Source: Desulfobacterales bacterium
Lineage (GTDB): Bacteria > Desulfobacterota > Desulfobacteria > Desulfobacterales > JAHEIW01
NCBI GenBank assembly: GCA_030066985.1
Contig: JASJAN010000018.1
Span: 1,742-65,741, forward strand
DNA: 64,000 bases
Direction: 5' to 3'
Part shown: positions 28,880 through 45,780 of the stretch, piece by piece
Position numbering within the stretch: the first letter of the stretch is position 1
Layout: every line of letters begins with the position of its first letter
Position numbers and translations under genes: made by a program
Notes under the pieces: generated by a model
What the model was told of the DNA's origin: nothing
The model's input: the letters and a program-made list of their open reading frames with translations, nothing else
Database searches by the model: none

Positions 28880-28943
28880 AATTGCTACCTCCTCAATTTA
28901 TTAATAAAGCGTCTAATTTACATTTGAAGACCTATTTTATCCG

Positions 28944-31091: not shown

Positions 31092-31234
31092 TTTTCAATT
31101 TCTGAGCGGCCCTTTTTCCGCTGGCCGGCGTTCTCCGCGGATTTCGCGCCTGCAACGTACTTCAAGTACGCCTTGGCGGAAACCCTTGTGCGGCCTTGCC
31201 CAACGAAAAAAAATCTCACTCAGAAATTGAAAAC
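31091..31234. repeat. 144-nt nested palindromic element between the SDR and thiolase genes
   Basis: Perfect 16-nt outer arms: GTTTTCAATTTCTGAG (31091-31106) and CTCAGAAATTGAAAAC (31219-31234). A concentric inner palindrome CGTACTTCAAGTACG sits at 31156-31170. Confidence 0.7.
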
Positions 31235-31274
31235 TGTATATCTAAATATATTAGAACAAAGAAAGAGAGAAAAA

Positions 31275-32441
31275 ATGGGAAAAGTAGCGATTGTCGGAGT
31301 TGGACAAAGTACATTTGTTAGAAGTTACCCGGGATCGATTCGAGAGCTGGTATTTGAGGGATTTAAGGAGGCCATGCAGGATGCGCAGATGAGCACCACG
31401 GATATCGATGCTTCCATTATCTGCTCAGCTCCTGAATACGACAAACAGCGCTCACCGGCTGGTGTATTTGCGGAATATTTGGGCTTGAATCCGCAACCGA
31501 CCTTTTATGTCGAAACCTTGTGCTCATCGAGCAGTACCGGATTGAAACTCGCCTATTCGCTGGTCAAGTCCGGCCTGCATGATGTCGTAGCGGTAATCGG
31601 TTTTCAGAAGATGTCAGAAATCTCCTCTTCCGAATCCCAAGAGCGTATGGGCAGGGGTGCTGATATCCAGTGGGAAAGCCCCTTTGGCACAATGATGCCG
31701 GCATACTATGCCATGTATGCCAATGCCCATATGGCTAAATACGGCACTACTTTAGACGATTTGGCCTTGATCCGGGTTAAAGCGGCAACTTATGGTCAGT
31801 TAAATGATCGCGCGGTTTATCGCAAGCCGGTTGAATTTGAAATGTTTAAAGATCCGGAAAATCGCATGGCCGGACCGGTGGCCAGCCCGCTACGTGTAGG
31901 AGATTGCTGTGCCAATGCCGACGGCAGCTCCTGCTTAATCGTTGCAAGTGAAGAAAAGGCCAAAGCGTTTTCAAAAAAGCCGGTCTGGATTTTGGGCGTC
32001 GGCGCTGCAACGACAACCGTTAATTTAGCGGGTAGAGATCTGTTTACCGGGCTAAGTGTTGCCGAGCAAGCAGCCCAGCAAGCATATGAAATGGCCGGAG
32101 TGGGCCCTAAAGATATCGATGTTGCCGAGGTCCATGATTGTTTTACCATTGCAGAAATGATGGCCTATGAAAATTTGGGTTTTGCGCAACCGGGTGAAGG
32201 CAAAGAATTGATCAGAGCCAAAGAGACCTATAAGGATGGCAGCATCCCGGTCAATGTTGACGGCGGCCTTTTATCAAAAGGCCACCCCATAGGCGCTACC
32301 GGCGGATCCCAGATCCGCACCATCGTCTTGCAGCTTAGAGACGAAGCCGGCGATATTCAGGTCAAAGATCCGAAAATTGGCCTGGTGCATAACATCGGCG
32401 GCGTGGGTTTGTATGGCAATGTGACGATACTTGGACGTTAA
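31275..32441 (+). CDS. SCP2-type thiolase (thiolase domain protein, DUF35-partnered)
   Basis: MGKVAIVGVGQSTF, catalytic Cys in VETLCSSSS, then HDCFT and SKGHPIGATG. The ORF opens at 31173, but that part lies within the palindromic element. Confidence 0.85.
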   Translation: MGKVAIVGVGQSTFVRSYPGSIRELVFEGFKEAMQDAQMSTTDIDASIICSAPEYDKQRSPAGVFAEYLGLNPQPTFYVETLCSSSSTGLKLAYSLVKSGLHDVVAVIGFQKMSEISSSESQERMGRGADIQWESPFGTMMPAYYAMYANAHMAKYGTTLDDLALIRVKAATYGQLNDRAVYRKPVEFEMFKDPENRMAGPVASPLRVGDCCANADGSSCLIVASEEKAKAFSKKPVWILGVGAATTTVNLAGRDLFTGLSVAEQAAQQAYEMAGVGPKDIDVAEVHDCFTIAEMMAYENLGFAQPGEGKELIRAKETYKDGSIPVNVDGGLLSKGHPIGATGGSQIRTIVLQLRDEAGDIQVKDPKIGLVHNIGGVGLYGNVTILGR

Positions 32442-32565
32442 GAGAAGTTGTGAAGACACCCCGCAAAGCCGCCAAGCACGCAAATGGTAATTATTCTCAA
32501 CAATCAGTTTATGTTATGCTTTGCGTCTTTGCAAGAGGTTTTTATCCTAATAAGAGAGGCTAAAG

Positions 32566-33000
32566 ATGAGCAAAAAGAAAGATGTAGATGATCGGTTCAA
32601 ACATTTTGGTACGGTCAGCTTTACTTCCATTACCAAAACCAATGATTTTATCGACTACCTTAAAGACAACAAGGTCATGGGAACCCGTTGCAAGGATTGC
32701 GGATTGCATTTCTTCCCGCCACGGGTGGATTGCCATCAGTGTCTGGCCAGCAACATGGAATGGTTTGAGGTAAGTGGCAAAGGCAAACTGGTAAGCTACA
32801 GCAAACTGCAATATGCGCCTATCGGCTTTGAGGAAGATGTTCCCTACTGTATCGCCCTGTTGGATTACGGTGATTATAAGGTATTTGGCAGAATCGCCGG
32901 TGACCTGGCGGACGATGACATCCAGGTAGGAATGGAAATGCAAGCGGTCGTAAATGAGCTACCCAATGGGCAGTTGAACTATGTCTTTGTTAAAGCATAA
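32566..33000 (+). CDS. DUF35 Zn-ribbon/OB-fold protein (thiolase partner, BbsA-like)
   Basis: 144 aa. Zn-ribbon CKDCGLHFFPPRVDCHQC followed by an OB fold. Confidence 0.8.
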   Translation: MSKKKDVDDRFKHFGTVSFTSITKTNDFIDYLKDNKVMGTRCKDCGLHFFPPRVDCHQCLASNMEWFEVSGKGKLVSYSKLQYAPIGFEEDVPYCIALLDYGDYKVFGRIAGDLADDDIQVGMEMQAVVNELPNGQLNYVFVKA

Positions 33001-33010
33001 TTTAAATTAA

Positions 33011-33093
33011 CCACAGAGTGCACAGAGAACACAGAGAAAAGATTCTCATTTCAAAATTTTTTTATAACTCTGTGGGCTCCGTGATCTCTGTGG
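33011..33093. repeat. Inverted pair of triple 9-mer repeats (NNCACAGAG x3), REP-like
   Basis: CCACAGAGTGCACAGAGAACACAGAG (33011-33036) faces CTCTGTGGGCTCCGTGATCTCTGTGG (33068-33093). Confidence 0.7.
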
Positions 33094-33119
33094 TAAACAT
33101 CACTTCGAGGATTAAAACC

Positions 33120-33890
33120 ATGAGCGAATATCAGTATTTGAAAGTCGAAAAAGCAGACGGGGTCGCGCGGATGACGCTCGATCGGCCCAAGCACAATGTT
33201 TTAGACATTACCATGATGAATGAAATGATTGCCGAACTGGAAGATCTCGTGTCCGACAAAGAGCTCAAATGCCTTGTGTTTAGCGGCGCAGGAGCCAGTT
33301 TTTGCGCCGGTGTTGAGGTCGCCGATCACAAGCCGGAAAGTGCCGATCAAATGATTGCGACTTTTAACCGCATTTTCGAATTGATTGATCAGCTCGATGT
33401 CCCCGTCATTGCAGCGGTGCACGGCGCATGTCTGGGCGGTGGTATGGAGTTGGCCATTGCATGTGACATCATTGTGGCGGGCGACAGCGCTATCTTTGGT
33501 CAGCCGGAAATCAAGCTTGCATTTTTACCGCCCTATGCCGCTATACGGCTGCCCCATCTGGTAGGCCCTGCGAAAGCAATTGAAATCTGCACAACCGGAA
33601 AGCGTTACAGCGCTGCGGAAGCTCAGCAAATGGGAATGGTTTGCTATGCTGTTGCCGACGATCAGCTGGCGGAGACCACCGACAAACTTGTTAAGGAAAT
33701 TCAATACAACAGCCCGCTCATTATTCGATTGAATAAGCAGGCGGTCAAAAAACACCTGGGTCTGCCCTTCTCTCAAGCGATCGACAGTGTCAGCGACCTG
33801 TTCCTGAATACGTTGATGAAAACTGAAGATGTCCTTGAAGGCATCAAGAGTTTCGAAGAAAAACGCAAACCGGTTTGGAAGAACAAGTAA
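33120..33890 (+). CDS. Enoyl-CoA hydratase/isomerase (crotonase) family; possible dienoyl-CoA hydratase
   Basis: MTLDRPKHNVLD, FSGAGASFCAGVEV and GGGMELAIACD. The start is set at ATG 33120 (SD GAGGA) because the upstream ORF part is repeat-derived. Confidence 0.8.
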   Translation: MSEYQYLKVEKADGVARMTLDRPKHNVLDITMMNEMIAELEDLVSDKELKCLVFSGAGASFCAGVEVADHKPESADQMIATFNRIFELIDQLDVPVIAAVHGACLGGGMELAIACDIIVAGDSAIFGQPEIKLAFLPPYAAIRLPHLVGPAKAIEICTTGKRYSAAEAQQMGMVCYAVADDQLAETTDKLVKEIQYNSPLIIRLNKQAVKKHLGLPFSQAIDSVSDLFLNTLMKTEDVLEGIKSFEEKRKPVWKNK

Positions 33891-34024: not shown

Positions 34025-36064
34025 ATGTCACAGATAAATAAAATCGCAGTTATCGGTGCAGGCAATATGGGCAGCGGAATCGCGCAAAAAATTGCCCAAG
34101 AAGGCATCAACGTCATTATGGTGGATACAAGTGAAGACTTTGTCGAACGCGGCATTAATACCATCCGCCAATTGTTGAAAGAGGCCGTCGAGCGCAAGAT
34201 TCTCAATTCAGAGCAGCTTCACGATGTTCTCTCGCGCATTATCGGCACATGCGATTTTGAAATGGTGGCCGACGCCGACCTGGTCATAGAGGCTGTTTTT
34301 GAGGACAAGCAGGTTAAATTCGACCTTTTTGAGAAACTGGATCGGATCTGCTCCGATAAAACCATACTGGCCACCAACACCTCTAGCTTTTACGTTCACG
34401 AATTTGCCAGTAAAACCAGTCGGCCGGATCGGTTTATCGGGTTGCATTATTTCTACCATCCGGCAAAAAATCGCCTGCTGGAAATCATCCCCCATGAAAA
34501 AACCAGCGCCGAAACAGTCGAAAAATCGCTTCTGGCAGCCAAGCTGCATGGTAAAACCGCCATCGTAGTTAAAGATGCGCCCGGTTTTGCCGTCAATCGC
34601 TTTTTTGTGCCGTTTTTAAACGAGGCTGCCCGCATGCTGGAAGAAGATATGGCCAATATTGCCACCATCGAAGAAGCCGCCAAACAAGCATTTAAAATCG
34701 GTATGGGGCCTTTTGAGCTCATGAATGTCACCGGCATCCCCATCGCGGTGCATGCCTCAACCACCTTGGGAAATGAGCTGGGACCGTTTTATGCCACCGC
34801 CGAAGGTTTAAAAGCACAGAAGGATAAAAATGAAAATTGGGATTTAAGCGGCGATGTTGACGAATCCAAACTCGAAGCAGTTAAAGATCGCTTCTACGGA
34901 GTATGTCTCGGGGTGGCCGCAGCGCTGGTGGATGAGGGCGTAGCAACGATCGAAGATACCGATCGGGGCGCTAAAATCGGTCTGCGCTGGCTGATGGGTC
35001 CTTTTGAAATCATGAACAGAATCGGCATTGAAAAAACCTACAAAGCAGTAGAAGCCATAACCCAAAGATACCCTGATTTTAAAATGCCTCAGGTTTTGCA
35101 GCAACAGTATCAAAGCGGTGAGCCGTTTGCGTTTAATTTTGTTGACCTCGACGTCAAAGGTGATGTCGCATATATCACCATTAACCGTCCCGAAGCCATG
35201 AATGCCTTAAACGAAACGGTGGTGGCACAACTCAGACAGCGGTTTGAAGAAGCTGAGGCAAACACCGATGCCAAGGTCATTGTGTTTCAGGGCGCCGGCA
35301 AGGCCTTTGTCGCCGGAGCGGATATTAAATATTTTGTAGACAAGATCAGAGCGGATAAAATTACAGATATCGCAGAATTCACCCGCAAGGGTCACGAATT
35401 GCTGCTGGATATCGAAAACTCGGACAAACTGACCATTGCCCTGCTCGACGGTCTGAGCTTGGGCGGCGGCAGTGAGCTTGCTCTGGCCTGCCAGGCCATC
35501 ATCGCCACACCGGCCGGGTCTATGGGTTTTCCGGAAACTTCTATTGGCATTTTTCCCGGACTGGGCGGAATGCTACGCATGGCACGATTTGTCGGACCGG
35601 AGCTCGCTAAATATTATGTCTTCACCGGCGCCCCCATCAGTGCTGCAGATGCGCACGACCTTGGCATTATTACGCGTCTGGTGGCGCCGGCCGACGTGGC
35701 TTCTGCCATAAAAGATTTGGCATCCGGAGCAAAACCGGACAAATATCAGCAACGCGAAATCCCCGAAAAATTTGAAACCCTGGCGCAACTGGGCAGTAGC
35801 GTAAATGTTGAGCGCCTTTTAACCGGACAACCGCCCGAAGGCGTGCCGGATGGAATCGCGGCCAAAACTGCTAAGATAATGGGGTATAAAGCACCACTGG
35901 CTCTTAAAATTGCCAATGAAGTTATCGATGCGCAAGTCGGAAAGCCAATCGCCGAAGCAGTGGAAGTTGAACTCGGGCGCCTGAATGACATCTTCAGCAC
36001 TGCTGATGCCTTAGAGGGCCTCTCAACCGTTGGCCGTAAGAGGCCAGAATACAAAGGGGCGTGA
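34025..36064 (+). CDS. Bifunctional 3-hydroxyacyl-CoA dehydrogenase / enoyl-CoA hydratase
   Basis: 679 aa. N-terminal Rossmann IAVIGAGNMGSGIAQ. C-terminal crotonase domain ITINRPEAMNALN...FQGAGKAFVAGADI...GGGSELALAC. SD AAAGGAGA upstream. Confidence 0.88.
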   Translation: MSQINKIAVIGAGNMGSGIAQKIAQEGINVIMVDTSEDFVERGINTIRQLLKEAVERKILNSEQLHDVLSRIIGTCDFEMVADADLVIEAVFEDKQVKFDLFEKLDRICSDKTILATNTSSFYVHEFASKTSRPDRFIGLHYFYHPAKNRLLEIIPHEKTSAETVEKSLLAAKLHGKTAIVVKDAPGFAVNRFFVPFLNEAARMLEEDMANIATIEEAAKQAFKIGMGPFELMNVTGIPIAVHASTTLGNELGPFYATAEGLKAQKDKNENWDLSGDVDESKLEAVKDRFYGVCLGVAAALVDEGVATIEDTDRGAKIGLRWLMGPFEIMNRIGIEKTYKAVEAITQRYPDFKMPQVLQQQYQSGEPFAFNFVDLDVKGDVAYITINRPEAMNALNETVVAQLRQRFEEAEANTDAKVIVFQGAGKAFVAGADIKYFVDKIRADKITDIAEFTRKGHELLLDIENSDKLTIALLDGLSLGGGSELALACQAIIATPAGSMGFPETSIGIFPGLGGMLRMARFVGPELAKYYVFTGAPISAADAHDLGIITRLVAPADVASAIKDLASGAKPDKYQQREIPEKFETLAQLGSSVNVERLLTGQPPEGVPDGIAAKTAKIMGYKAPLALKIANEVIDAQVGKPIAEAVEVELGRLNDIFSTADALEGLSTVGRKRPEYKGA

Positions 36065-36288
36065 TACGGGTAACACGGACAGAGAAACTGGCCTCACAGG
36101 GGTGGGAAAAACAGGCCACTTATGATGAGCCCCGTCTGTCCGAAGTGGTTGATACCTACCGGGAAACCGGCCTGGAGGTTCACTTAGAGCCTTTTCATCC
36201 CAATGACGAGCCTGGCTGCGCCGTGTGCATGGCCAGCATGCCGGAAAAGTATAAAACGATTTATACCCGTAAAGGCCCCGTCAAATAG
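36061..36288 (+). CDS. Small conserved-looking hypothetical protein, translationally coupled
   Basis: 75 aa. The GTG start overlaps the upstream TGA (GTGA). Sequence is charged and non-repetitive, with a CAVC pair. I recognise no family. Confidence 0.4.
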   Translation: MIRVTRTEKLASQGWEKQATYDEPRLSEVVDTYRETGLEVHLEPFHPNDEPGCAVCMASMPEKYKTIYTRKGPVK

Positions 36289-36370: not shown

Positions 36371-36389
36371 CTGGTGCTAGCCCGCCTTT

Positions 36390-36560
36390 TTACCAGTTGT
36401 ATGAAGCGACAACCAGGATAACCAGGTTCCCCTCCCCGATATTTAACAAACGATACGAAGATCCGGTTGGAATCCAGGTGGCATCCCCTGGCCCAACCTG
36501 ACGCGTTTCATCATCCACACTCATTTCACCTGAGCCCTGTAACACTTTCAATAATTTAGC
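36390..36560 (-). pseudogene. Cupin-domain C-terminal remnant
   Basis: The reverse frame reads FCQAKLLKVLQGSGEMSVDDETRQVGPGDATWIPTGSSYRLLNIGEGNLVILVVASYNW*, resembling cupin motif 2 and the last strands. It is bounded upstream by TAG. Only a 44-codon ATG ORF is present (36524-36390). Confidence 0.35.
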
Positions 36561-36595
36561 TTGACAGAAACTACAATGTAGCTTTAATGTAGCTA
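36561..36595 (+). promoter_or_regulatory. Candidate promoter P1 (TTGACA-N18-TAATGT) with palindrome CTACAATGTAG and 14-mer AGCTTTAATGTAGC
   Basis: -35 at 36561-36566. The palindrome at 36571-36581 lies in the spacer. -10 at 36585-36590. The 14-mer is at 36580-36593. Confidence 0.5.
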
Positions 36596-36635
36596 ATACC
36601 AGGATTCAACGCAAAAAGGAAATTGGCTCAATTAA

Positions 36636-36664
36636 TTGACACAAATTTAAAATGTAGCTAAAAA
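36636..36664 (+). promoter_or_regulatory. Candidate promoter P2 (TTGACA-N17-TAAAAA) with half-site AAAATGTAGCTA
   Basis: -35 at 36636-36641. The half-site at 36649-36660 lies in the spacer. -10-like hexamer at 36659-36664. Confidence 0.4.
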
Positions 36665-36729
36665 ATTAACTGAATTGAACGCGCCAATAGGGGCTTTCAA
36701 ATTCAAATAAATTCATAAAGGATGTTGCC

Positions 36730-38601
36730 ATGCACAAATTACTTACCGAAAATCCAGGTCAAAAAATGCTGCTGCTGGGCAATGAAGCCATTGCCAGAGG
36801 CGCGATCGAAGCCGGCGTTGCGGTTGCCAGTACCTATCCGGGCACCCCCTCTTCTGAAATTTCTTTGAATTTTTTCCAGATGTCCCATGAAAGTGATCTG
36901 TACTTTGAATACAGTACCAATGAAAAGGTGGCCATGGAAGTGGCGGCCGCCGCGGCAAACTCCGGCGTGCGCAGCATGTGTGTCATGAAGCATGTAGGCG
37001 TTAATGTCGCCGCAGACGCCTTGATGACGCTGGCCTATGTAGGGGTTAAGGGCGGCATGGTCGTGCTGACTGCCGATGATCCCTACATGTTTTCCAGTCA
37101 AAATGAGCAGGACAATCGCTTTTATGCCAAATTGTCTGGTCTGCCGCTAGTGGAACCCTCCAGCGTGGAAGAAGCCAAAGAGATGATGGCCTATGCTTTT
37201 GACATATCTGAAAAACTGCAGGAACCGGTTTTGTTTCGCACCACCACCCGTATCAATCACTCCTCCGCCATTGTCACTTTAGGAGACATTAAAGCACCGC
37301 AGACAAAAGGCGATTTTGTCAAAGACCCCTTCAATCTGGTCACGGTGCCGGCTGTTTCCAGGAAGCTGCATGTCAAACTCCTGGAAAACATCGAAAAGGC
37401 CAAAGAACTCACGGAAGCCTCACCGTACAATTTGATCGAAGGTGACGGCAACTGGGGCATCATTTGCAACGGCGTCAGCTACAACTACGCCTCAGACGCC
37501 ATCAATGAGCTCGATATTGCGGATAAGATCAAATTGCTGCGCGTGGGCTTTTCTTACCCCATGCCTGAAAAAATAATTAAAACCTTTTTAAATGCTTGTG
37601 AGAAAGTGCTGGTTATTGAAGAAGGTGAACCCTATATGGAGGAGCAGGTCAAAGCCTTTGCCCAGGAAGAAGGACTCACCCTGTCAATTCGCGGAAAAGC
37701 CAAAGATCTGTTTACACGACTTTATGAATACGATCCGGCACAGGTTAGAGAAAATATCGCCAAGTTTTTCGACATCCCCTATACCCCGGTCGCTAAGCCT
37801 GACATTTCCGACGTCCCCGAAATGCCCCAGCGCCCACCGACTCTGTGCGCCGGTTGTTCTCATCGCGCCACTTATTATGCGGTTAAAAAAGCGGCCGAAG
37901 GCCTGGGCACCATTTATCCAACAGACATCGGGTGTTATACCCTTGGTGTACTCCCGCCGCTATCAACAGCGGATTTTCTATTGTGTATGGGATCATCGGT
38001 CGGCACGGGATGCGGCTTTTCAGCTTCTACGGATAAGAAAGTCATTTCCTTTATCGGTGATTCTACTTTTTTCCACTCCGGCATCCCCGGTCTGATCAAC
38101 GCCGTATTTAACAACCATAACTTTACACTGGTCGTGTTAGACAACAGCACCACGGCGATGACCGGCCATCAGCCCCATCCGGGTGTTAACATGAAGGATT
38201 TTAACCTGACAGGCTATGGTCGGGTGTCGATTGAAGACGTTGTCCGTGCCATCGGTGTACCCCATGTAGAGGTCATCAAACCGTATCGGGTCAACAAGAG
38301 CATAGCGGCCATCAAGGAGGCTATTGATTACGAGGGCGTATCCGTCATCATATCCAAAGAAGCCTGTACCCTTTATGCCCAGAGTCTTAAAAAAGCCCGA
38401 GGCAAGCCCTTTTATATTAATGAAAAATGTAAGGATCACCGTGATTGTGTCAATGAGTTGGCCTGTCCGGCATTTTATATTGAAGGCGAAAGAGTTCACA
38501 TCAATGCAGATCTATGTTCAGGCTGTGCTGTGTGTGCCCAGATATGTCCGGAAAAAGCCATTGTTCCGGTGCGGTCAAAGGAAAATGTTAAACCTTCATG
38601 A
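36730..38601 (+). CDS. iorA: Indolepyruvate:ferredoxin oxidoreductase alpha subunit
   Basis: 623 aa. TPP-enzyme N-domain GNEAIARGAIEAGV..TYPGTPSSE. C-terminal 2x[4Fe-4S] motifs CPAFY and CSGCAVCAQICP. Confidence 0.88.
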   Translation: MHKLLTENPGQKMLLLGNEAIARGAIEAGVAVASTYPGTPSSEISLNFFQMSHESDLYFEYSTNEKVAMEVAAAAANSGVRSMCVMKHVGVNVAADALMTLAYVGVKGGMVVLTADDPYMFSSQNEQDNRFYAKLSGLPLVEPSSVEEAKEMMAYAFDISEKLQEPVLFRTTTRINHSSAIVTLGDIKAPQTKGDFVKDPFNLVTVPAVSRKLHVKLLENIEKAKELTEASPYNLIEGDGNWGIICNGVSYNYASDAINELDIADKIKLLRVGFSYPMPEKIIKTFLNACEKVLVIEEGEPYMEEQVKAFAQEEGLTLSIRGKAKDLFTRLYEYDPAQVRENIAKFFDIPYTPVAKPDISDVPEMPQRPPTLCAGCSHRATYYAVKKAAEGLGTIYPTDIGCYTLGVLPPLSTADFLLCMGSSVGTGCGFSASTDKKVISFIGDSTFFHSGIPGLINAVFNNHNFTLVVLDNSTTAMTGHQPHPGVNMKDFNLTGYGRVSIEDVVRAIGVPHVEVIKPYRVNKSIAAIKEAIDYEGVSVIISKEACTLYAQSLKKARGKPFYINEKCKDHRDCVNELACPAFYIEGERVHINADLCSGCAVCAQICPEKAIVPVRSKENVKPS

Positions 38602-38710
38602 TGACAAAGGCATCACGAAGCATGGCGTAATGGCGCATTGAATAAACCAGAGTTGATCTTGAACTCATACATGTAAACTTGACTATACTAAAACTGATAG
38701 GAACGAACTT

Positions 38711-39307
38711 ATGGAGACAACAAGGCTAATCATCGTAGCTGTCGGCGGCCAGGGCAACCTGCTGGCATCCAAAGTGCTCGGAGAGGCGGCGCTGCTGGCA
38801 GATGTTCCCGTACGCATGAGTGAAATCCACGGCATGGCTCAAAGGGGTGGTGTCGTAGAATCTGCAGTGGTTTTTGGAGATGCGGAAAGCACAATTATTT
38901 CGGATGGCGAAGCGGATGTGTTGTTGGGATTTGAACCCTCGGAAACGCTGCGCGCGATAAACAAATGCAATGCCAAAACAATCGTCATTACCAATACGGC
39001 ACCGCTGCCGCCGTTTACTGTGTCCATCGGCCAAGGCACCTATCCCGATTTGGCTGAACTTCAGGAATTAATTCGCCAGAAAACGGCCCGTTTGGTAGCT
39101 TTTGATGCCCTATCTCTGGCTAAAGAGGCCGGCAATTTCATGTCTTTGAACATGGTTTTGCTGGGTTCATTGATTCAAACAGGAATTATGCCGGTTTCCG
39201 CGGACAATGTTAGGGAAGCCATTCGAACATCCACGAAAAAGGCATTCGTCGATATTAATATCAAGGCTTTTGAGCTTGGCTTTGAGGCCGCCGCAAAGGC
39301 CGGTTGA
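38711..39307 (+). CDS. iorB: Indolepyruvate:ferredoxin oxidoreductase beta subunit
   Basis: 198 aa. IIVAVGGQGNLLASKVLGEAA is typical of the gamma-type domain of 2-oxoacid:ferredoxin oxidoreductases. Confidence 0.85.
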   Translation: METTRLIIVAVGGQGNLLASKVLGEAALLADVPVRMSEIHGMAQRGGVVESAVVFGDAESTIISDGEADVLLGFEPSETLRAINKCNAKTIVITNTAPLPPFTVSIGQGTYPDLAELQELIRQKTARLVAFDALSLAKEAGNFMSLNMVLLGSLIQTGIMPVSADNVREAIRTSTKKAFVDINIKAFELGFEAAAKAG

Positions 39308-39455
39308 TTTGACGGCGAAAACGTTTCAATCACCATTTTGACGGTAAAGCGGGCATCAGGCTGCAATGGATTATGCAGCGGTCTGTCAATTTTTCAAAAA
39401 AAAATATAGTCGATGGCCATTATAACAATTTCGTTATCCAAAAAGGAGGAAGATC

Positions 39456-40763
39456 ATGCCTTGGAACGACAAGTATGAATGCATGCCGGTGGAAGAGCTT
39501 AAAAAATTTCAGTTGGAAAAACTGAAAGAAACCGTTGCATGGGTCGCCGAGAAAGTGCCGTTCTATAAAAATAAATTCGAGGAAATGGGTGTCGCCGCCG
39601 ACGACATCAAAAGCCTTGAAGATGTTGCCAAACTTCCGTTCACCGTCAAAACAGATCTCAGAGACAATTACCCCTTTGGTTTGTGCGCCGTACCCCTGGA
39701 AAAGGTCGTCAGAGTCCACGCGTCTTCAGGAACCACCGGCAAACCCATTACCGGGCCATACACACAGGAAGATTTGGATCAGTGGATCGAATGTATGTGC
39801 CGCAACCTCCATGCCGCAGGCCTCCGCAAGGAAGATGTGGTTCAAAATGCTTACGGCCACGGTCTATTTACCGGCGGCCTCGGCTTTCACCAAGGCGCTA
39901 CTGCCCTGGGTTGTACGGTTGTGCCCACCGGCGCCGGGATGACCGAACGACAGATTACCATCATGCAGGATTTTAAATCCGATATTCTGTTTGCCACGCC
40001 CTCTTATGCGCTGACAATTGCCGAGCGAGCCGAAGAAATGAAAGTCGACATTCGAAAGCTGCCATTGCGGGTCGGGGTCTTCGGTGCCGAGCCTTGGACA
40101 GAAGGCATGCGGCAGGAGATCGAAGAACGGATGGGCATCAAAGCCCAAGAGGCATTCGGATTAACCGAGCTCTGCGGGCCCGGAGTGGCTTATGACGCTG
40201 CAGATCAAAACGGCCTTTATATCAATGAAGATCATTTTCTGCCTGAAATCGTCGATCCGCAAACTCTGGAACCTTTGCAGGAAGGTGAAAAAGGCGAGCT
40301 CATTTTTACCTCTTTGCAGCGCCGCGCGATGCCGATGATTCGCTATCGTACCAAAGATATTACACGATTGTGGCGAGAACCCGGCCACGAAGGCCGGACC
40401 TTTATCCGTATGGACAAAATTTATGGGCGCTCGGACGACATGCTGATTATCAGCGGTGTGAACGTCTTTCCATCTCAAATTGAAGCACTTCTGCTGGAAA
40501 TCGAAGAAGTTGAGCCTCAATACCAGCTGGTTGTGAGCAAAAAAGGGTATCTGGACCATCTGAGCATTCGCGTGGAAGGCAAAAAAGAAATATATGAGGC
40601 CGGTGAAGACCGTAGGCATGAAGTCGAAGGCAAAATCGCAGGTCATATCAAAGGCAATATGGGGATTAACATTAATGTCGAACTGGTCGATGCCAAAGCC
40701 ATTGCCCGCAGTGAAGGCAAAGCCGTGCGGGTTATAGACGAACGCCCCAAACAGGAGATGTAA
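39456..40763 (+). CDS. paaK: Phenylacetate-CoA ligase family (PaaK-like)
   Basis: 435 aa. LPFTVKTDLRDNYPFG, SSGTTGKP and an ACT-like C-terminal domain. SD AAGGAGGAAG upstream. Confidence 0.85.
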   Translation: MPWNDKYECMPVEELKKFQLEKLKETVAWVAEKVPFYKNKFEEMGVAADDIKSLEDVAKLPFTVKTDLRDNYPFGLCAVPLEKVVRVHASSGTTGKPITGPYTQEDLDQWIECMCRNLHAAGLRKEDVVQNAYGHGLFTGGLGFHQGATALGCTVVPTGAGMTERQITIMQDFKSDILFATPSYALTIAERAEEMKVDIRKLPLRVGVFGAEPWTEGMRQEIEERMGIKAQEAFGLTELCGPGVAYDAADQNGLYINEDHFLPEIVDPQTLEPLQEGEKGELIFTSLQRRAMPMIRYRTKDITRLWREPGHEGRTFIRMDKIYGRSDDMLIISGVNVFPSQIEALLLEIEEVEPQYQLVVSKKGYLDHLSIRVEGKKEIYEAGEDRRHEVEGKIAGHIKGNMGININVELVDAKAIARSEGKAVRVIDERPKQEM

Positions 40764-40765
40764 AA

Positions 40766-41710
40766 ATGAGTGCTGCGTCCAATTTTAATCCGCAATCGTT
40801 TGCGGTGGTTGGCGCCGGGCCAGTCGGTTGCATCGCCGCCTGCTTTTTGGCCAAAGGCGGTTATGAGGTTACGCTTTGCGATGTCATTCCGGACTTGCTG
40901 GCACCGGCGTTGGATCCGGGAATTATTCTTGAAGGCGCCGAAAACATCCAACATAAAGTTACTCGTACCTGCACCAGTGTTGATGAAATAGCCAACCACA
41001 ATCCAGATGTGATTTTCATCACTGTCAAAGCCAATGCGCTGCCGCTGATTGCTTCAGCCATTGAAGGCTTTCACAAAGAAGGCCTGGCAATTGTCAGCTG
41101 GCAAAACGGTATTGATACTGAACTGGAACTGGCGAAAACACTCGGAAAGACGGATGTGATGCGTGCCGTTGTCAATTACGGATGCGGCCTGGCGGGTCCA
41201 GGGCACGTTAAAATACCCTTTCACCACCCGCCGCACTACATCCAGGAACTGGATCCGCAATCTCGTGATTCAGCCATTGCCATTGCCGCTGCGCTCAGCA
41301 AATGCGGTCTGGAAACCGAGCATACCGACAACATTATCTCAATGGTCTGGCGCAAGAGCGTTATGAATGCCTGCATGAATCCAGTGTGTGCCGTCACCGG
41401 GCTGACCATGTCACGCGCCATGAATGATCCTATCGTCTATCAGATTGTCGATGCCCTGGTAAAAGAATGCATTCAGGTTGCCCGCGCCAATGAAATTGAT
41501 CTGGGATGGGATTTTTATCCCCATGCCATGGAGTACATGCGAAATGCCGGTGATCACAAACCGTCGATGCTAATGGATATCGAAGCAGGCCGGCGCACCG
41601 AAATTGACTTTATTAACGGCAAGTTCGTAGAATATGGTGCCCGCACAGCAACCCAGACGCCGTACAATCATACGCTCAGCGCCCTGGTAAAAGGATTAGA
41701 GTCAAAATAG
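40766..41710 (+). CDS. Ketopantoate reductase (PanE/ApbA) family 2-oxoacid reductase
   Basis: 314 aa. N-terminal Rossmann FAVVGAGPVGC. C-terminal KPR domain with KPSMLMDIEAGRRTEIDFING. Confidence 0.75.
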   Translation: MSAASNFNPQSFAVVGAGPVGCIAACFLAKGGYEVTLCDVIPDLLAPALDPGIILEGAENIQHKVTRTCTSVDEIANHNPDVIFITVKANALPLIASAIEGFHKEGLAIVSWQNGIDTELELAKTLGKTDVMRAVVNYGCGLAGPGHVKIPFHHPPHYIQELDPQSRDSAIAIAAALSKCGLETEHTDNIISMVWRKSVMNACMNPVCAVTGLTMSRAMNDPIVYQIVDALVKECIQVARANEIDLGWDFYPHAMEYMRNAGDHKPSMLMDIEAGRRTEIDFINGKFVEYGARTATQTPYNHTLSALVKGLESK

Positions 41711-41715
41711 CCCAT

Positions 41716-42492
41716 ATGGTCTCCAAAACAACTTATGCGGGTGTCGATGTGGGGGCATCGCGCACCAAAATAGCCCTCCTCGATAGCAATCAAAACTTGA
41801 TCGGTCATGCGGTTAAAAGATCCGGCACTGACTTTGCAGCCACCGCTGATACCTGTTTGGCAACGGCTTTAAAAATGTCCGGTACCCAAAAGAGCGACAT
41901 TAAATTTACCGTTTCTACCGGATATGGCCGCAAGAATGTCGTTTTCGCCCAGGATAGTAAAACGGAAATTGGCTGTCATGCCAAGGGGTGTTATTTGTAT
42001 TTTCCGTTTGCCACCACAATTATCGATATTGGCGGTCAGGACAACAAAGTCATTAAGCTGGACGCCGAGGGCAAGCGTACCAGCTTTAAAATGAATCGTA
42101 AATGTGCTGCCGGTACGGGCGCCTTTCTGGAGGAAATGGCGATGCGCTTGGATGTCACGCTGGATGATATGAACGAGCTCGCCAGTCAATCTGATAATAT
42201 GGTCAAACTGGGAAGCTTCTGCACAGTCTTTTCGGCCACCGAGGTGCTGGAAAATATCCGCCAGGGTAAAAAGCTGCCGGATATTGTCAAAGGTGTCTAT
42301 TATTCGATGATAAAACGCGTCTTGGAGATGGATGCCCTGACCGAAAAAGTGGTCATGACCGGTGGTGTGGTGGCACATAATGCCTTTATGGTCAAAATGA
42401 CCGAAGAAATGATCGGCCGCAAAATTCTTGTGCCGGAATACCCGCAGCTCACCGGCGCCATTGGCGCCGCGCTATATGCAATGCAGTCATAG
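41716..42492 (+). CDS. BcrAD/BadFG/HgdC-type ATPase (2-hydroxyacyl-CoA dehydratase activase)
   Basis: 258 aa. AGVDVGASRTK, DIGGQDNKVI and NRKCAAGTGAFLE (cluster-bridging Cys region). Confidence 0.85.
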   Translation: MVSKTTYAGVDVGASRTKIALLDSNQNLIGHAVKRSGTDFAATADTCLATALKMSGTQKSDIKFTVSTGYGRKNVVFAQDSKTEIGCHAKGCYLYFPFATTIIDIGGQDNKVIKLDAEGKRTSFKMNRKCAAGTGAFLEEMAMRLDVTLDDMNELASQSDNMVKLGSFCTVFSATEVLENIRQGKKLPDIVKGVYYSMIKRVLEMDALTEKVVMTGGVVAHNAFMVKMTEEMIGRKILVPEYPQLTGAIGAALYAMQS

Positions 42493-42599
42493 CTGTAGGC
42501 TTCTGGCTTTTCATCTTTTGACTTAGCCTGTTTGTTAGCTCTGAAACAGCGTTCAGAAGATAATCGATGCAGGACAAATTGACATATGAAGGTGTATTT

Positions 42600-43853
42600 A
42601 TGACCACTGATAAAAAAGAGGTAACGCGCGTTAAGCTAAAAACAACCAGCAAACTAAACCAGATCATGGCCGATTATTTTTATGAGCTGGATGCGGCTGC
42701 AAAAGCAAAAGAACCCAAAATTGCCTGGTGTACGAGTGTCGGACCGGCAGAAATCCTGCGTGCGATGGGGTTTCTGGTTTTTTTCCCCGAAAATCACGGT
42801 GCCATGCTCGGTGCCAGCCGCATGGCCACCGATTTATTGCCGATCGCGGATGCCCAAGGATATTCGCCGGATATCTGTTCGTATCTACGAGCCGATATTG
42901 GTGCCTACCTGAACAAGACGACGCCTATTGCAAAATCATATAAAGGCATTGAAGGCGTCCCCAAGCCGGATGTGCTCGCATTTAACACAAATCAATGTCG
43001 CGACGTGCAAGACTGGTTTACATGGTATGCCAAAGAACTTGATGTTCCCATAATCGGTATCCATACCCACCGTAGTGTTGGCAAAGTGACCCAAAACCAC
43101 ATTGATTCAATTGCCACGCAATTGAAGGATTTAATCAAGCCGCTAGAATATATTTCGGGCAATAAGTTTGATCTCGACAAACTTAAGCAAGTTGTCGCAT
43201 TGTCCAAGGAGTGTTCAATCCTGTGGAAAAAGGTTCTGAATACCGCTACAAATGTGCCCTCTCCGTTTACCTTCTTTGATGGAACCATCCATATGGCACC
43301 GGCAGTTGTCCTCAGAGGCACCCAGCAGGCCAATGATTACTATGAATTATTACTCAATGAATTAGAGGAGCGAGTTACAAACAATATCGCCGCGGTACCG
43401 CATGAACAGCACCGGATCTATTGGGATGGTATGCCGGTCTGGGGTCGACTGAGAGATCACTCCGAATTGTTTTCGGATTTGAAGGCCAATGTCCTGGCCT
43501 CCACATATTGCAATAGCTGGATTTTTTCATCCTTCGATCCCGATGATCCCTTTAACAGTATGGCACGTGCCTATACAGAATTGTTTATTGTGCGCTCGGA
43601 CGATTTTAAAGAAACCTACATTAAAGAAATGCTGAATGCGTTTAAAGTTGATGGCATTATCTATCATGATGCAAAGTGTTGCCCTAATAATTCCAACGCG
43701 AGTTACGGGATGCCGCAACGCCTTGAGCGGGAGACCGGTGTTCCCAGTTTAACGATCAACGCCGATCTTAATGATTTGCGGCTGATTTCAGATGAGCAGA
43801 CCAAAACGAATGTTGAGGCGTTTATTGAACAGCTTGAAGAAAACCAAACCTGA
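42600..43853 (+). CDS. 2-hydroxyacyl-CoA dehydratase family protein (HgdA/HgdB/BcrC-like), single subunit
   Basis: IAWCTSVGPAEILRAMGF..FFPENHGA and DICSYLRADIG. The start is set at ATG 42600 (SD GAAGGTG); the ORF opens at 42567. Confidence 0.8.
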   Translation: MTTDKKEVTRVKLKTTSKLNQIMADYFYELDAAAKAKEPKIAWCTSVGPAEILRAMGFLVFFPENHGAMLGASRMATDLLPIADAQGYSPDICSYLRADIGAYLNKTTPIAKSYKGIEGVPKPDVLAFNTNQCRDVQDWFTWYAKELDVPIIGIHTHRSVGKVTQNHIDSIATQLKDLIKPLEYISGNKFDLDKLKQVVALSKECSILWKKVLNTATNVPSPFTFFDGTIHMAPAVVLRGTQQANDYYELLLNELEERVTNNIAAVPHEQHRIYWDGMPVWGRLRDHSELFSDLKANVLASTYCNSWIFSSFDPDDPFNSMARAYTELFIVRSDDFKETYIKEMLNAFKVDGIIYHDAKCCPNNSNASYGMPQRLERETGVPSLTINADLNDLRLISDEQTKTNVEAFIEQLEENQT

Positions 43854-43949
43854 GTTGAGCGTAATAAATTTTAAAAGATTTAAAACAGAATAGCGGAATT
43901 CTTTCATCTTTATTTTAAAATTTATAACCCTGTGGGATTGCCGATCTTA

Positions 43950-44021
43950 CCGCATCTACTGTGTTAGATGCCGTTTCGCATAGAAAACTATAGCGAAACG
44001 ACTTCTGCCGTGTAGCTGCGG
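43950..44021. repeat. Composite long hairpin in the 373-nt spacer before the acyl-CoA ligase gene
   Basis: Inner stem CGTTTCGCATAG/CTATAGCGAAACG (43972-44000, one bulge, AAAA loop). Outer stem CCGCATCTAC (43950-43959) / GTAGCTGCGG (44012-44021, one mismatch). Confidence 0.6.
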
Positions 44022-44080
44022 CAACCTCGACAATCGCTTAACTCAGGTCCCAATTTTAAGCGTTATAAATTTACAAATTA

Positions 44081-44164: not shown

Positions 44165-44226
44165 CACCGGAGGCGGACCAGCGGGTAACGGCGCAACTTT
44201 TTTTGCTGATATATGGAGGTGATAGC

Positions 44227-45780
44227 ATGGGCTACTGGATGAACTTAGGTCAAATCCAAAAAGTGAATGCCAAGAAATTCCCACAAACAGTCGCCTTAAA
44301 AGACGAAAACCGCGCATTTACTTACCCACAAATGAACAGCCGCATTAACAAACTGGCCAACAGTCTCAGCTCCCTTGGGTTGCAGAAAGGCGATAAAGTT
44401 GCCGTTCTGCTTGAAAATTGCATTGAAATCTGTGAGCTATTCCTGGCAACCGCCAAAGCCGGTATCATTATCGTGCCCATCAATTTTCGTCTGGTGTCTG
44501 GTGAAGTGGAATACATTGTTAATAATTCAGACGCCAAGGCTATGGTCGTTCATGACCAATTTGCCGGTGTTGTCGAGCCCATCCGTTCCAAGCTAAACAA
44601 TATTAACGCTGAAAACTATGTTATCGTCGGCCGTCCACAGGACGGATATCAGCCTTATGAGGAATTTATCGCAGCATCCTCCGACACCGAGCCGAAAACT
44701 GAAGTTGCCCCCCGCGACACCTGGATTTTGATTTATACCTCCGGCACTACCGGAAGACCAAAAGGCGTCATCCGTTCCCACGAATCCCATATCGCTTATT
44801 ATCTGCACAATGCCGTTGACTTTGATTTTAATGAACACGATGTATGCTTAAATGTCATGCCTCTGTGTCATATCAACTCCATCTTTTTTACGTTCACCTT
44901 TTTGTATATCGGGGGATCGGCCTATATTCACCCGGCCTTAAACTTTAAACCCGATGAAATTCTCAAAATTATCGAAAACGAGAAAATCACCTTTATCTCG
45001 CTGATTCCAACCCATTACAATTTAATCCTGAATGCCCCCGAGGATGCCAAAAAGCGCGATGTCAAATCAATTCGCAAGTTGCTGTGTTCGTCTGCACCCG
45101 GTCGCAAAAGTATGAAGCAGGCGGTAATGGAATTTTTCCCGGGCGTTAAACTCTACGAAGCTTACGGTTCGACCGAAGCCGGCATGGTCACCATCCTCAA
45201 ACCTGAATTCCAGATGAGCAAGCTTGGATCCATCGGTTTTGAATGTATTGGTACTGATTTTCTGAAGATTCTCGACATTGACGGCAATGAAGTGCCGAGT
45301 GGTGAAATCGGTGAGTTATACTCACGGGGTCCGATGCTGTTTGATGAATACTACAAGCTGCCCGAGGTGACCGCGGAATCATTTGAAGGCGGTTTTTTTT
45401 CAGCTGGCGATATGGCGCGACAGGATGAAGATGGCTTTTATTACCTGGTGGATCGCAAAAAAAATATGATCATCACCGGAGGAGAAAATGTCTATCCCAG
45501 TGAAGTAGAAGAAGTTGTCGGCAACATTGAAGGCGTCTTTGAATGCGCGGTAATCGGACTGCCTGACGAAAAATGGGGCGAAAAGGTCAGCGCGGTCATC
45601 ATCCGCAAGCCGGGTTTTGATGACAGCAACTTGGGCGAGCAACATGTCATTCAGGCCTGCAAAGGCAAGATGGCAGGCTACAAGTGCCCCAAACAGGTGA
45701 TCTTTATCGGTGAAAATGATATGCCCCGTACCGGCACCGGGAAAATTCTGCATCGCATCCTAAGAGAACAGTTCGGATAG
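44227..45780 (+). CDS. AMP-dependent acyl-CoA synthetase/ligase
   Basis: YTSGTTGRPKGV, YGSTE, AGDMARQDEDGFYYLVDRKKNMIITGGENVYP and PRTGTGKI. The start is set at ATG 44227 (SD GGAGGT); the ORF opens at 44203. Confidence 0.9.
   Translation: MGYWMNLGQIQKVNAKKFPQTVALKDENRAFTYPQMNSRINKLANSLSSLGLQKGDKVAVLLENCIEICELFLATAKAGIIIVPINFRLVSGEVEYIVNNSDAKAMVVHDQFAGVVEPIRSKLNNINAENYVIVGRPQDGYQPYEEFIAASSDTEPKTEVAPRDTWILIYTSGTTGRPKGVIRSHESHIAYYLHNAVDFDFNEHDVCLNVMPLCHINSIFFTFTFLYIGGSAYIHPALNFKPDEILKIIENEKITFISLIPTHYNLILNAPEDAKKRDVKSIRKLLCSSAPGRKSMKQAVMEFFPGVKLYEAYGSTEAGMVTILKPEFQMSKLGSIGFECIGTDFLKILDIDGNEVPSGEIGELYSRGPMLFDEYYKLPEVTAESFEGGFFSAGDMARQDEDGFYYLVDRKKNMIITGGENVYPSEVEEVVGNIEGVFECAVIGLPDEKWGEKVSAVIIRKPGFDDSNLGEQHVIQACKGKMAGYKCPKQVIFIGENDMPRTGTGKILHRILREQFG

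Follow-up and report, generated by a model that had tools for sequence, protein, structure and literature searches.

A candidate ligase-dependent operon for the conversion of aryl C3/C2 acids to benzoyl-CoA in sulfate-reducer-type Desulfobacterales

Organisation of the locus and its neighbourhood

An ORF check of the window, the whole stretch of 64,000 nucleotides analysed here, located six co-directional ORFs at 36730-43853 on the + strand. The first two encode the alpha and beta subunits of an arylpyruvate (indolepyruvate):ferredoxin oxidoreductase. IorA (36730..38601, +), with POR_N, TPP_enzyme_C and Fer4 domains, scored 791 bits against TIGR03336 (cut-off 651), and IorB (38711..39307, +) matched PF01558 at 126 bits, its TIGR03334 assignment being borderline (204.5 against a cut-off of 205.8). 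They are followed by a PaaK-type arylacetate-CoA ligase (39456..40763, +; TIGR02155 at 560 bits, under the equivalog cut-off of 646), a 2-oxoacid reductase of the ketopantoate-reductase (KPR) family that is a putative arylpyruvate reductase (40766..41710, +; ApbA and ApbA_C domains; TIGR00745, 195 against 141), an ATP-dependent acyl-CoA dehydratase activase (component A; 41716..42492, +; TIGR00241, 219 against 125) and a single-subunit 2-hydroxyacyl-CoA dehydratase homologue (HGD-D, alpha-like; 42567..43853, +; PF06050 at 236 bits). Coordinates and family profiles therefore bear out the six genes and the parts list of the initial annotation. That annotation had closed the unit at 43853, but the conserved block also takes in a 525-aa AMP-forming acyl-CoA ligase (44203..45780, +; AMP-binding and AMP-binding_C domains) beyond a spacer of 349 nt. 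Only 2 nt separate paaK from the KPR gene, so that the two are almost translationally coupled, and 5 nt lie between the KPR and activase genes.

The promoter/operator region 5' of iorA (36561..36660, +) carries three ATGTAGC half-sites. The motif AATGTAGCT, for which 0.31 copies are expected in the window, was found five times, three of the copies being inside this region, and the tandem sites are kept at four related loci (L011, L012, L013 and L056). A 14-mer from the same region, AGCTTTAATGTAGC, recurs as an exact copy at 30167-30180, in the had/SDR promoter region. Further upstream, a 75-aa ORF (36061..36288, +) overlaps the stop codon of the preceding gene; it has no Pfam match and is found at the same position in nine related loci with 53-78% identity.

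Several neighbouring genes could process a C3 side chain or its product. A fused 3-hydroxyacyl-CoA dehydrogenase/enoyl-CoA hydratase (34025..36064, +; 3HCDH_N and ECH domains) is a candidate for cinnamoyl-CoA processing and shares 68% identity both with Dmul_24740 of Desulfococcus multivorans, which is induced by phenylacetate and phenylpyruvate, and with Dmul_24680, of the cinnamate cluster. Upstream of it lies a beta-oxidation module identified by Pfam and NCBIfam (30342..33890, +), comprising an SDR, an SCPx-type thiolase, a DUF35 OB-fold protein and a crotonase. The D. multivorans orthologues of the SDR, thiolase and DUF35 protein (81%, 83% and 66% identity) adjoin bamA, so that the module may act on the side chain, in the lower benzoyl-CoA pathway or in both. 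In the window, the benzoyl-CoA ring-cleavage steps are represented by bamA (oah) and had on the opposite strand (27734..30050, -; TIGR03200, 564 against 464; TIGR03201, 458 against 339).

Conservation across Desulfobacterales and the Desulfococcus multivorans counterpart

Gene neighbourhoods, whose comparison the initial annotation had proposed as a check, were surveyed in 80 species-level genomes. The KPR-activase-dehydratase core is strongly conserved in Desulfobacterales: the activase adjoins the dehydratase in 67 of 71 loci, and the KPR gene lies upstream of it in 58 of 68. The recurrence of the arrangement in dozens of species-level genomes goes far beyond what chance would give. A thiolase is encoded downstream in 31 of 53 loci.

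An order-level census of 151 genomes was used to relate the dehydratase to bamA. Both genes occur in 59 genomes, the dehydratase orthologue only in 6, bamA only in 3 and neither in 83; that is, bamA is present in 59 of 65 dehydratase-positive and 3 of 86 dehydratase-negative genomes, a co-occurrence that partly reflects physical linkage and is drawn from related genomes that are not independent. The two genes share a contig, 11-16 kb from each other, in at least 17 genomes. Together with the 14-mer common to the had/SDR promoter region, this co-occurrence supports the earlier suggestion that the operon feeds into benzoyl-CoA metabolism (had-bamA).

D. multivorans DSM 2059 holds an orthologous cluster, Dmul_24830-24900 (coordinates corresponding to genome G043), with 60-68% identity. 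Its genes already carry the annotations phenylpyruvate reductase, R-phenyllactate dehydratase activator and dehydratase subunit alpha (Dörries 2016, PMC5109826), so the combination, of whose characterisation the initial annotation was not aware, is known as a gene set with predicted functions. The two clusters agree in the order of ior, KPR, activator, dehydratase alpha and FadD4 genes, in having an HCDH/ECH fusion, a thiolase, a TRAP transporter and bamA nearby, and in listing no beta subunit. They differ in that the slot of paaK in the window is filled by an ACT-domain gene in D. multivorans, which also carries a second AMP ligase and an IorA3B3 only about 40% identical to IorAB here; the ior module is therefore not orthologous across the clade.

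D. multivorans grows on phenyllactate, and phenylacetate or phenylpyruvate specifically elicits the formation of its FadD4, HCDH/ECH fusion, a thiolase and IorA3B3 (PMC5109826); on detection of the Dmul_24850-70 proteins the text of the paper is silent. Induction of beta-oxidation enzymes on phenylacetate is sensible only if a C3 side chain is formed. The padEFGHI genes are absent in that organism and the authors of the study find the route to benzoyl-CoA unclear; the reductase, activator and dehydratase genes were assigned only to 'phenyllactate to phenylpyruvate', with no dehydration route to benzoyl-CoA proposed (PMC5109826).

The reductase, the single-subunit dehydratase and the ligases

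The KPR-family reductase shares 60% identity with Dmul_24870, annotated 'putative phenylpyruvate reductase', and matches structure 3wfi at 85 bits; its family includes D-mandelate dehydrogenases, according to Wada 2008 as cited in PMC4580590. The possibility raised at the outset that it might be the genome's only panE does not hold, since the genome has four KPR paralogues, one of which, on contig C23, directly precedes panB and is only 25% identical to the operon copy; the latter is therefore not the panE. Natural KPR/HGD-D fusions occur in three divergent cluster representatives (P0123, P0129 and P0142), the KPR part of P0129 being incomplete (ApbA_C only). Downstream of the fusion at locus L102 are an activase and a Mo enzyme that matches the alpha subunit of 4-hydroxybenzoyl-CoA reductase best (733 bits, below its cut-off).

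The activase matched the HadI structure 4eht at 185 bits and retains both cluster-cysteine motifs. Since homologues of the dehydratase have 415-417 aa, its true start is probably M12, at 42600. The protein aligned over its full length to the HadB alpha subunit (3o3m_A, 195 bits), and the three cluster cysteines are nearly invariant. Its best structural and NCBIfam match is the 2-hydroxyisocaproyl-CoA dehydratase HadB and no phenyllactyl-CoA enzyme, with a score of 247 far under the HadB equivalog cut-off of 750; the substrate of this clade is proposed from context only.

No second HGD-D gene above the cut-off was found in the genome, which is 97.8% complete, and the dehydratase therefore lacks a beta subunit. 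Characterised component D enzymes are all alpha-beta heterodimers (PMC11574389). When modelled as a homodimer, the protein passed its controls, with a median score of 0.58 against 0.00 for the best of them. Among proteins of solved structure, 20 of the 30 one-chain pairs attained this mark, as did 1 of the 23 single chains. The pass may be partly due to resemblance to the solved HadBC heterodimer. Three runs shared at least 97% of contacts, with pLDDT of at least 92. We propose that the dehydratase may be a homomeric alpha2 enzyme.

The initial annotation had cast the PaaK-type protein itself as the aryl-lactate ligase, taking the place of the clostridial CoA-transferase. This is improbable. 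The tight spacing with the KPR and activase genes would suit such a role, as would the score below the PaaK equivalog cut-off, the three further PaaK-type genes in the genome and the existence in this family of a 2-hydroxyacid ligase with a structure (2-hydroxyisobutyryl-CoA synthetase, 6hdw). Yet the similarity to 6hdw (212 bits) is about half that to genuine PaaK enzymes (430, 417 and 395 bits, the highest for Burkholderia PaaK1, 2y27), and the position before the KPR gene is occupied by paaK in 34 of 66 related loci, only about half, and by an ACT-domain gene in 22 of 68; in D. multivorans the triad stands without paaK. Moreover, where paaK precedes KPR and enough upstream sequence is available, ior genes lie upstream in 24 of 25 loci, which is the usual ior-paaK association.

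Ligases encoded downstream of the dehydratase accompany it more often than paaK does: 46 of 61 loci have an ADP-forming synthetase there, and 39 of 58 an AMP-forming ligase. The AMP-forming ligase at 44203-45780 shares 66% identity with D. multivorans FadD4 (Dmul_24840), has PDB matches to FadD13 (283 bits) and feruloyl-CoA synthetase (258 bits), and is the best candidate for the activation of aryl-lactate (or cinnamate). No family III CoA-transferase was found in the cluster, and the broader idea that activation depends on a ligase and not a transferase is plausible.

A proposed route to benzoyl-CoA and its relation to known systems

On balance we read the operon, with moderate confidence, as a catabolic one that encodes an oxidative, ligase-dependent variant of the clostridial 2-hydroxyacid route, converting aryl C3/C2 acids to benzoyl-CoA. 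Most likely, phenylpyruvate or phenylacetate is converted via phenyllactyl-CoA, with an unusual one-subunit radical dehydratase. Arylpyruvate, from transamination of Phe or Tyr or from imported phenylpyruvate or phenyllactate, would be reduced by the KPR-family enzyme to (R)-aryllactate, which an ATP-dependent ligase, most likely the 525-aa AMP-forming enzyme or possibly the ADP-forming synthetase in relatives, would convert to aryllactyl-CoA. A ligase would be needed rather than a CoA-transferase because the thioester is kept as far as benzoyl-CoA and no CoA is recycled. The activase would then give one electron to the homomeric alpha2 dehydratase, yielding cinnamoyl-CoA by ketyl-radical chemistry; the hydratase/dehydrogenase fusion and a thiolase would produce benzoyl-CoA and acetyl-CoA, the former feeding the adjacent had-bamA genes. 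IorAB and PaaK may tie the phenylacetate pool to phenylpyruvate (phenylacetate -> phenylacetyl-CoA <-> phenylpyruvate). Gene identities, synteny, the missing beta subunit and the co-distribution with bamA are observed here; the steps of the route are all inferred. The arylpyruvate-to-benzoyl-CoA scheme put forward initially thus survives as the best reading, except for the role it gave to PaaK.

It is unlikely that the cluster is instead two unrelated modules side by side, with iorAB-paaK serving arylacetates and KPR-activase-dehydratase serving aliphatic 2-oxoacids, e.g. 2-oxoisocaproate to isocaprenoyl-CoA in leucine catabolism. In its favour, about one third of loci have the triad without ior genes within 10 kb, dehydratase and activase match best to two leucine-pathway proteins, HadB and HadI, the cluster at L009 is followed by a branched-chain-type ABC transporter, and the window holds an ilvE-type transaminase (25854-26771). 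However, the near one-to-one co-distribution with bamA is unexpected for an aliphatic route, and a promoter motif is shared with the had/SDR region; the HadB equivalog score is far under its cut-off, the L102 fusion protein adjoins a 4-hydroxybenzoyl-CoA-reductase-like enzyme, and the D. multivorans neighbour genes are induced by phenylacetate or phenylpyruvate (PMC5109826).

We consider it very unlikely that the HGD-D protein and activase are no dehydratase system but an ATP-driven low-potential reductase, kin to benzoyl-CoA reductase or double-cubane proteins, with an aromatic CoA ester of the benzoyl-CoA regulon as its substrate. The protein would be homomeric like the double-cubane proteins, belongs to a family that also matches BCR subunits (MbdO 130, BcrB 149 and double-cubane 65 bits) and is present in 59 of 62 bamA-positive genomes, as a component of the central pathway might be; but its scores against the dehydratase alpha subunit (195 to 247 bits) clearly exceed those against every reductase subunit, and its constant partnership or fusion with KPR, a 2-oxoacid reductase, and with acid-CoA ligases fits a 2-hydroxyacyl-CoA substrate. 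A Mo-independent alpha-oxidation replacing PadBCD and PadEFGHI (phenylacetyl-CoA to mandelyl-CoA by the radical enzyme, to phenylglyoxylate by KPR, to benzoyl-CoA by IorAB) would accommodate the missing Pad genes here and in D. multivorans, the D-mandelate dehydrogenases of the KPR family, the 2-oxoacid:ferredoxin oxidoreductase superfamily shared by IOR and phenylglyoxylate dehydrogenase, and PaaK within the operon, but is highly improbable, as it demands a net two-electron oxidation without precedent in a redox-neutral enzyme family and leaves the co-induced, syntenic beta-oxidation enzymes and extra ligases without a role.

Among known systems, the closest solved structure to the dehydratase is Clostridioides difficile HadBC with HadI (3o3m, 4eht), in which the three cluster cysteines are likewise kept; HadBC is an alpha-beta heterodimer (PMC11574389), whereas the genome here has no beta gene. 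The HadB equivalog also separates the two (247 against 750).

The phenyllactate dehydratase system of Clostridium sporogenes consists of FldH, FldA, FldBC and FldI. The proposed route shares its logic, from arylpyruvate through (R)-aryllactate and aryllactyl-CoA to cinnamoyl-CoA, and its combination of an ATP-dependent activase with an HGD-D-family [4Fe-4S] enzyme. It differs in having a KPR-family reductase and not one of the D-2-hydroxyacid-dehydrogenase fold, ligases instead of a family III CoA-transferase, and one dehydratase subunit where FldB and FldC act together. Cinnamoyl-CoA would here be oxidised to benzoyl-CoA, whereas in C. sporogenes it is reduced to phenylpropionate, and no acyl-CoA dehydrogenase or ETF genes are present here.

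In the Pad pathway of Thauera and Aromatoleum, PadJ, PadBCD and PadEFGHI carry out a Mo-dependent alpha-oxidation to phenylglyoxylate, with both side-chain carbons lost as CO2. The task, phenylacetate or phenylalanine to benzoyl-CoA, is the same, and a PaaK/PadJ-type ligase comes first in both. A PadE-type phenylglyoxylate dehydrogenase was not found in the genome (best match 58 bits; cut-off 300); unlike the Pad pathway, the proposed route would retain the side chain as acetyl-CoA.

Gene content and conserved core of the locus

The six co-directional genes lie where the initial annotation had placed them, all on the forward strand, and their families were called from Pfam and NCBIfam profiles. 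The alpha and beta equivalog models recognise the first two as IorAB, IorA (36730-38601) scoring 791 bits against TIGR03336 (cut-off 651) and IorB (38711-39307) being borderline at 204.5 bits against a cut-off of 205.8. The PaaK-type ligase (39456-40763), with AMP-binding and AMP-binding_C_2 domains, scored 560.5 bits with TIGR02155, below the cut-off of 646.3. The ketopantoate-reductase (KPR)-family protein (40766-41710) carries ApbA and ApbA_C domains and exceeds the TIGR00745 cut-off (194.7 vs 141.35), the acyl-CoA dehydratase activase (41716-42492) is recognised by TIGR00241 at 219 bits, and the HGD-D protein (42567-43853), the presumed dehydratase, matches PF06050 at 235.6 bits over residues 58-423. 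The gaps are 2 nt between paaK and the KPR gene and 5 nt between the KPR and activase genes, the three being almost translationally coupled. Homologues of the dehydratase are 415-417 aa long, and its true start is therefore probably M12 at 42600.

Upstream lie bamA and had (27734-30050, reverse strand), an SDR/SCPx-thiolase/DUF35/crotonase module and a 679-aa hydroxyacyl-CoA dehydrogenase/hydratase (HCDH/ECH) fusion (34025-36064). A 75-aa ORF (36061-36288) has a GTG start overlapping the stop codon of this fusion; it belongs to no Pfam family, and nine related loci have it in the corresponding place, with 53-78% protein identity. Downstream, a 525-aa AMP-forming ligase (44203-45780) is followed by a nitrilase-family hydrolase, a TetR gene (47017-47661) and an IcmF-type mutase. 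A simple promoter and terminator scan of 36000-47100 returned sites no more numerous than in shuffled sequence.

The dehydratase orthologues, 60-95% identical, form a tight group that Desulfobacterales carry in abundance; further members come from Geobacter argillaceus and from Aminicenantes and Thermoplasmatota MAGs. The window proteins were mapped by tblastn onto the 80 best species-level loci, and neighbours were counted among loci with enough flanking DNA. Upstream of the dehydratase, the activase was present in 67 of 71 loci and the KPR gene in 58 of 68; downstream, an ADP-forming acyl-CoA synthetase was found in 46/61 and an AMP ligase of the window type in 39/58. A thiolase occurred in 31 of 53 loci, iorA in 24 of 53 and paaK in 34 of 66, with an ACT-domain gene occupying the paaK slot in a further set (22/68), never alongside paaK. 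From these counts, the conserved core is KPR-activase-dehydratase plus a downstream ligase, with iorAB-paaK as a front end that is common yet dispensable.

The initial annotation had tentatively assigned the activation of aryl-lactate to the PaaK-type ligase itself. The close spacing of paaK and the KPR gene in this genome keeps that assignment alive, but paaK is patchily present among related loci, where the ACT gene can take its place, and the protein aligns far better with PaaK1 (430 bits) than with 2-hydroxyisobutyryl-CoA synthetase (212 bits). We therefore consider a lactate-ligase role for PaaK unlikely.

The 349-nt non-coding spacer between dehydratase and AMP ligase (43854-44202) is the exact slot of a 692-aa ADP-forming acyl-CoA synthetase gene in most relatives. 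No remnant of that gene was found in the window between the two, and the genome's best homologues, located elsewhere, are only about 35% identical. In same-genus relatives the genes flanking the dehydratase share 80-86% DNA and about 90% protein identity. Between them (window 42507-44213), the dehydratase gene falls into two allele classes, one with 81-89% DNA identity (related loci L011-L013) and one with about 70% DNA and 69% protein identity (L047, L049, L056, L065 and L024). The breakpoints coincide with the gene borders, as if the dehydratase gene alone had been swapped cleanly as a cassette.

A dehydratase encoded without a second subunit

Characterised component D enzymes are alpha-beta heterodimers (PMC11574389). 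When PF06050 was searched against the whole genome (a 5.07-Mb assembly, 97.8% complete), the window dehydratase was the only gene above the cut-off, the next match reaching 21 bits, and no pair of paralogous HGD-D subunits was found. A beta subunit supplied by a second HGD-D gene elsewhere was thus rejected for this genome. In five other genomes, too, the orthologue is the sole HGD-D gene at its locus. Over its whole length the protein aligns with HadB, an alpha subunit (3o3m_A, 195 bits), and less well with reductase subunits (MbdO, 130 bits; BzdO, 87 bits), and it falls short of the HadB equivalog NF052455 (246.9 bits vs a cut-off of 750). It has the HGD-D fold of component D, a dedicated activase encoded alongside and the three cysteine ligands of the [4Fe-4S] cluster: C104, C144 and C372 (numbering of the 428-aa ORF) align with the HadB cysteines and show at least 90% conservation across 60 aligned sequences. 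The activase matches HadI at 185 bits and keeps both cluster-cysteine motifs.

A model with two copies of the dehydratase scored 0.58 (runs of 0.62, 0.58 and 0.55), against 0.00 for the best control. Among proteins of solved structure, 20 of 30 pairs of one chain attained that mark, compared with 1 of 23 single chains. The three runs agreed in at least 97% of contacts, with pLDDT of at least 92, and the modelled interface adjoins the cluster cysteines. The model supports a homodimer, short of demonstration, and its score may partly reflect likeness to the solved HadBC structure.

[quoted passage not shown] The initial annotation had held open that the window copy might be the genome's only panE; this was rejected, as another copy (contig C23:12387-12758) lies directly upstream of panB (C23:12933-13703). 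The window protein is only 25% identical to that paralogue. An exhaustive search of protein cluster representatives recovered three divergent proteins with a KPR domain fused ahead of HGD-D (P0123, P0129 and P0142, the KPR part of P0129 being incomplete, with ApbA_C only), and such fusions appear to tie reductase and dehydratase functionally. At one related locus (L102:8001-14757), a 728-aa KPR-HGD-D fusion precedes an activase and a Mo enzyme of the xanthine-dehydrogenase family, made of three subunits, whose large subunit has 4-hydroxybenzoyl-CoA reductase alpha as its best match (733 bits, below the cut-off). This context points to aromatic acids, and the cluster may be a tyrosine-derived version of the route.

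Association with bamA and the Desulfococcus multivorans counterpart

For a census, the genome lists of 151 members of the order, the present genome among them, were compared by hand. Dehydratase orthologues were found in 65 and BamA in 62; 59 genomes carried both, 6 the dehydratase alone, 3 BamA alone and 83 neither, counts that are not independent because the genomes are related. The association is also partly one of physical linkage, since at least 17 genomes have the two genes on a single contig at a distance of 11-16 kb. Despite linkage and kinship, an aliphatic, leucine-type substrate for KPR-activase-dehydratase would not predict this pattern, and it explains less of the synteny and co-distribution. 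Equally, less of both is explained if the protein is a reductase rather than a dehydratase, or by a Mo-independent alpha-oxidation via mandelyl-CoA.

The exact 14-mer AGCTTTAATGTAGC occurs in the window only at 30167, in the divergent had/SDR promoter region, and at 36580, upstream of iorA. The half-site AATGTAGCT is present in five copies, where 0.31 would be expected, with three of the five upstream of iorA, and the tandem half-sites are kept in four same-genus relatives. Because the 14-mer is shared and the half-sites are enriched and conserved, this suggests that one regulator may control both the had/SDR and the iorA units. The operator-like ATGTAGC half-sites and the identical 14-mer (30111-30180 and 36571-36660) overlap the likely -10 regions of the two promoters.

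A counterpart has been listed for phenylacetate and phenylpyruvate catabolism in Desulfococcus multivorans: iorA3, iorB3, an ACT protein, FadD4, a second AMP ligase, a 'putative phenylpyruvate reductase' (319 aa), a 'predicted R-phenyllactate dehydratase activator' and a 'dehydratase subunit alpha' (416 aa) (Dörries et al. 2016, PMC5109826). Census genome G043 is this organism, as its coordinates match the published ones. Identities to the window proteins are 62% for the dehydratase, 65% for the activase, 60% for the KPR protein, 66% for the AMP ligase with FadD4, 68% for the HCDH/ECH fusion with Dmul_24740 and with Dmul_24680 of the cinnamate cluster, and 41% and 39% for IorA and IorB. The two D. 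multivorans fusions (680 aa each; 2770112-2772151 and 2776549-2778588) are each adjoined by a thiolase; one of these gene pairs belongs to the cinnamate cluster, the other to the phenylacetate cluster.

D. multivorans makes FadD4, the fusion protein, a thiolase and IorA3B3 specifically in response to phenylacetate or phenylpyruvate, and it grows on phenyllactate (PMC5109826). It lacks padEFGHI genes; the authors call the step to benzoyl-CoA unclear, state the same gap for Desulfobacula toluolica, and assign the KPR, activator and dehydratase genes solely to 'phenyllactate to phenylpyruvate' (PMC5109826). A search of the window's own genome likewise found no PadE-type gene. Literature searches on characterised dehydratases with a single subunit, on phenylpyruvate reductases of the KPR family and on phenyllactyl-CoA routes in sulfate reducers yielded little beyond this annotation, apart from speculation on such a dehydratase in a 2026 paper on benzene. 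The gene combination, which the initial annotation did not know to be characterised, already carries such predicted functions in the annotation of one cultured relative.

A candidate route to benzoyl-CoA and its relation to known systems

The best reading of the operon is an oxidative, ligase-dependent aryl-lactate route. Arylpyruvate would be reduced to (R)-aryllactate by the KPR-type enzyme and activated with ATP, and a predicted alpha2 radical dehydratase, primed by the activase, would convert aryllactyl-CoA to cinnamoyl-CoA, which would then be hydrated, oxidised and cleaved to benzoyl-CoA and acetyl-CoA. By this scheme the sequence from phenylpyruvate would be redox-neutral, and a ligase could stand in place of the clostridial CoA-transferase because the thioester is retained throughout. 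The observation behind the initial annotation is confirmed and its interpretation upheld in part. It had drawn the last steps from the neighbouring beta-oxidation module; the SDR/thiolase/DUF35 genes, whose D. multivorans counterparts adjoin bamA, may instead serve the lower benzoyl-CoA pathway, and the stronger candidate for oxidising the side chain is then the HCDH/ECH fusion.

That phenylacetate induces beta-oxidation enzymes in D. multivorans is chemically intelligible only if a C3 side chain is assembled, which suggests that PaaK and IorAB run toward phenylpyruvate, a step we infer. We put forward tentatively, as a possibility rather than an expectation, that anaerobes without Mo-dependent Pad enzymes lengthen phenylacetate: PaaK would form phenylacetyl-CoA, IorAB in reverse would carboxylate it reductively to phenylpyruvate, the KPR reductase, ligase and alpha2 dehydratase would lead to cinnamoyl-CoA, and beta-oxidation would give benzoyl-CoA and acetyl-CoA. 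If true, this would answer the question left by the D. multivorans study. The operon offers a complete candidate route from phenylalanine, phenylpyruvate or phenylacetate to benzoyl-CoA in obligate anaerobes without Pad enzymes, and it is almost as widespread as bamA in the sampled order. Being redox-neutral and saving the side chain as acetyl-CoA, such a route would bear on how carbon is budgeted when aromatic amino acids are degraded in marine sediments.

Two features stand out: the dehydratase has no beta subunit, and the operon may answer a pathway question left open so far. The clostridial Fld cluster uses the family III CoA-transferase FldA, whereas no CoA_transf_3 gene was found in the window, the genome's two copies being on contigs C76 and C44; nor did Pfam and NCBIfam assignments place an acyl-CoA dehydrogenase or ETF among the window neighbours, as a reductive Fld-type aryl-lactate pathway would have. 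On C44 (about 39-60 kb) this genome has a second region of aromatic-acid appearance, where another iorA (647 bits), a second PaaK-type ligase and the family III CoA-transferase lie inside roughly 20 kb. An arylpyruvate reductase of the KPR fold, in some cases joined to the dehydratase in one protein, would add a new functional branch to its family. The component D enzymes HgdAB, HadBC, FldBC and LcdAB have the fold, the three cysteines and the activase in common with the window, and the second subunit is theirs only. Electron storage and recycling in radical dehydratases are currently assigned to that beta subunit; a homomeric component D, if true, would alter this picture and be the first single-subunit 2-hydroxyacyl-CoA dehydratase, carried by 59 of the 62 sampled bamA-carrying genomes of the order.
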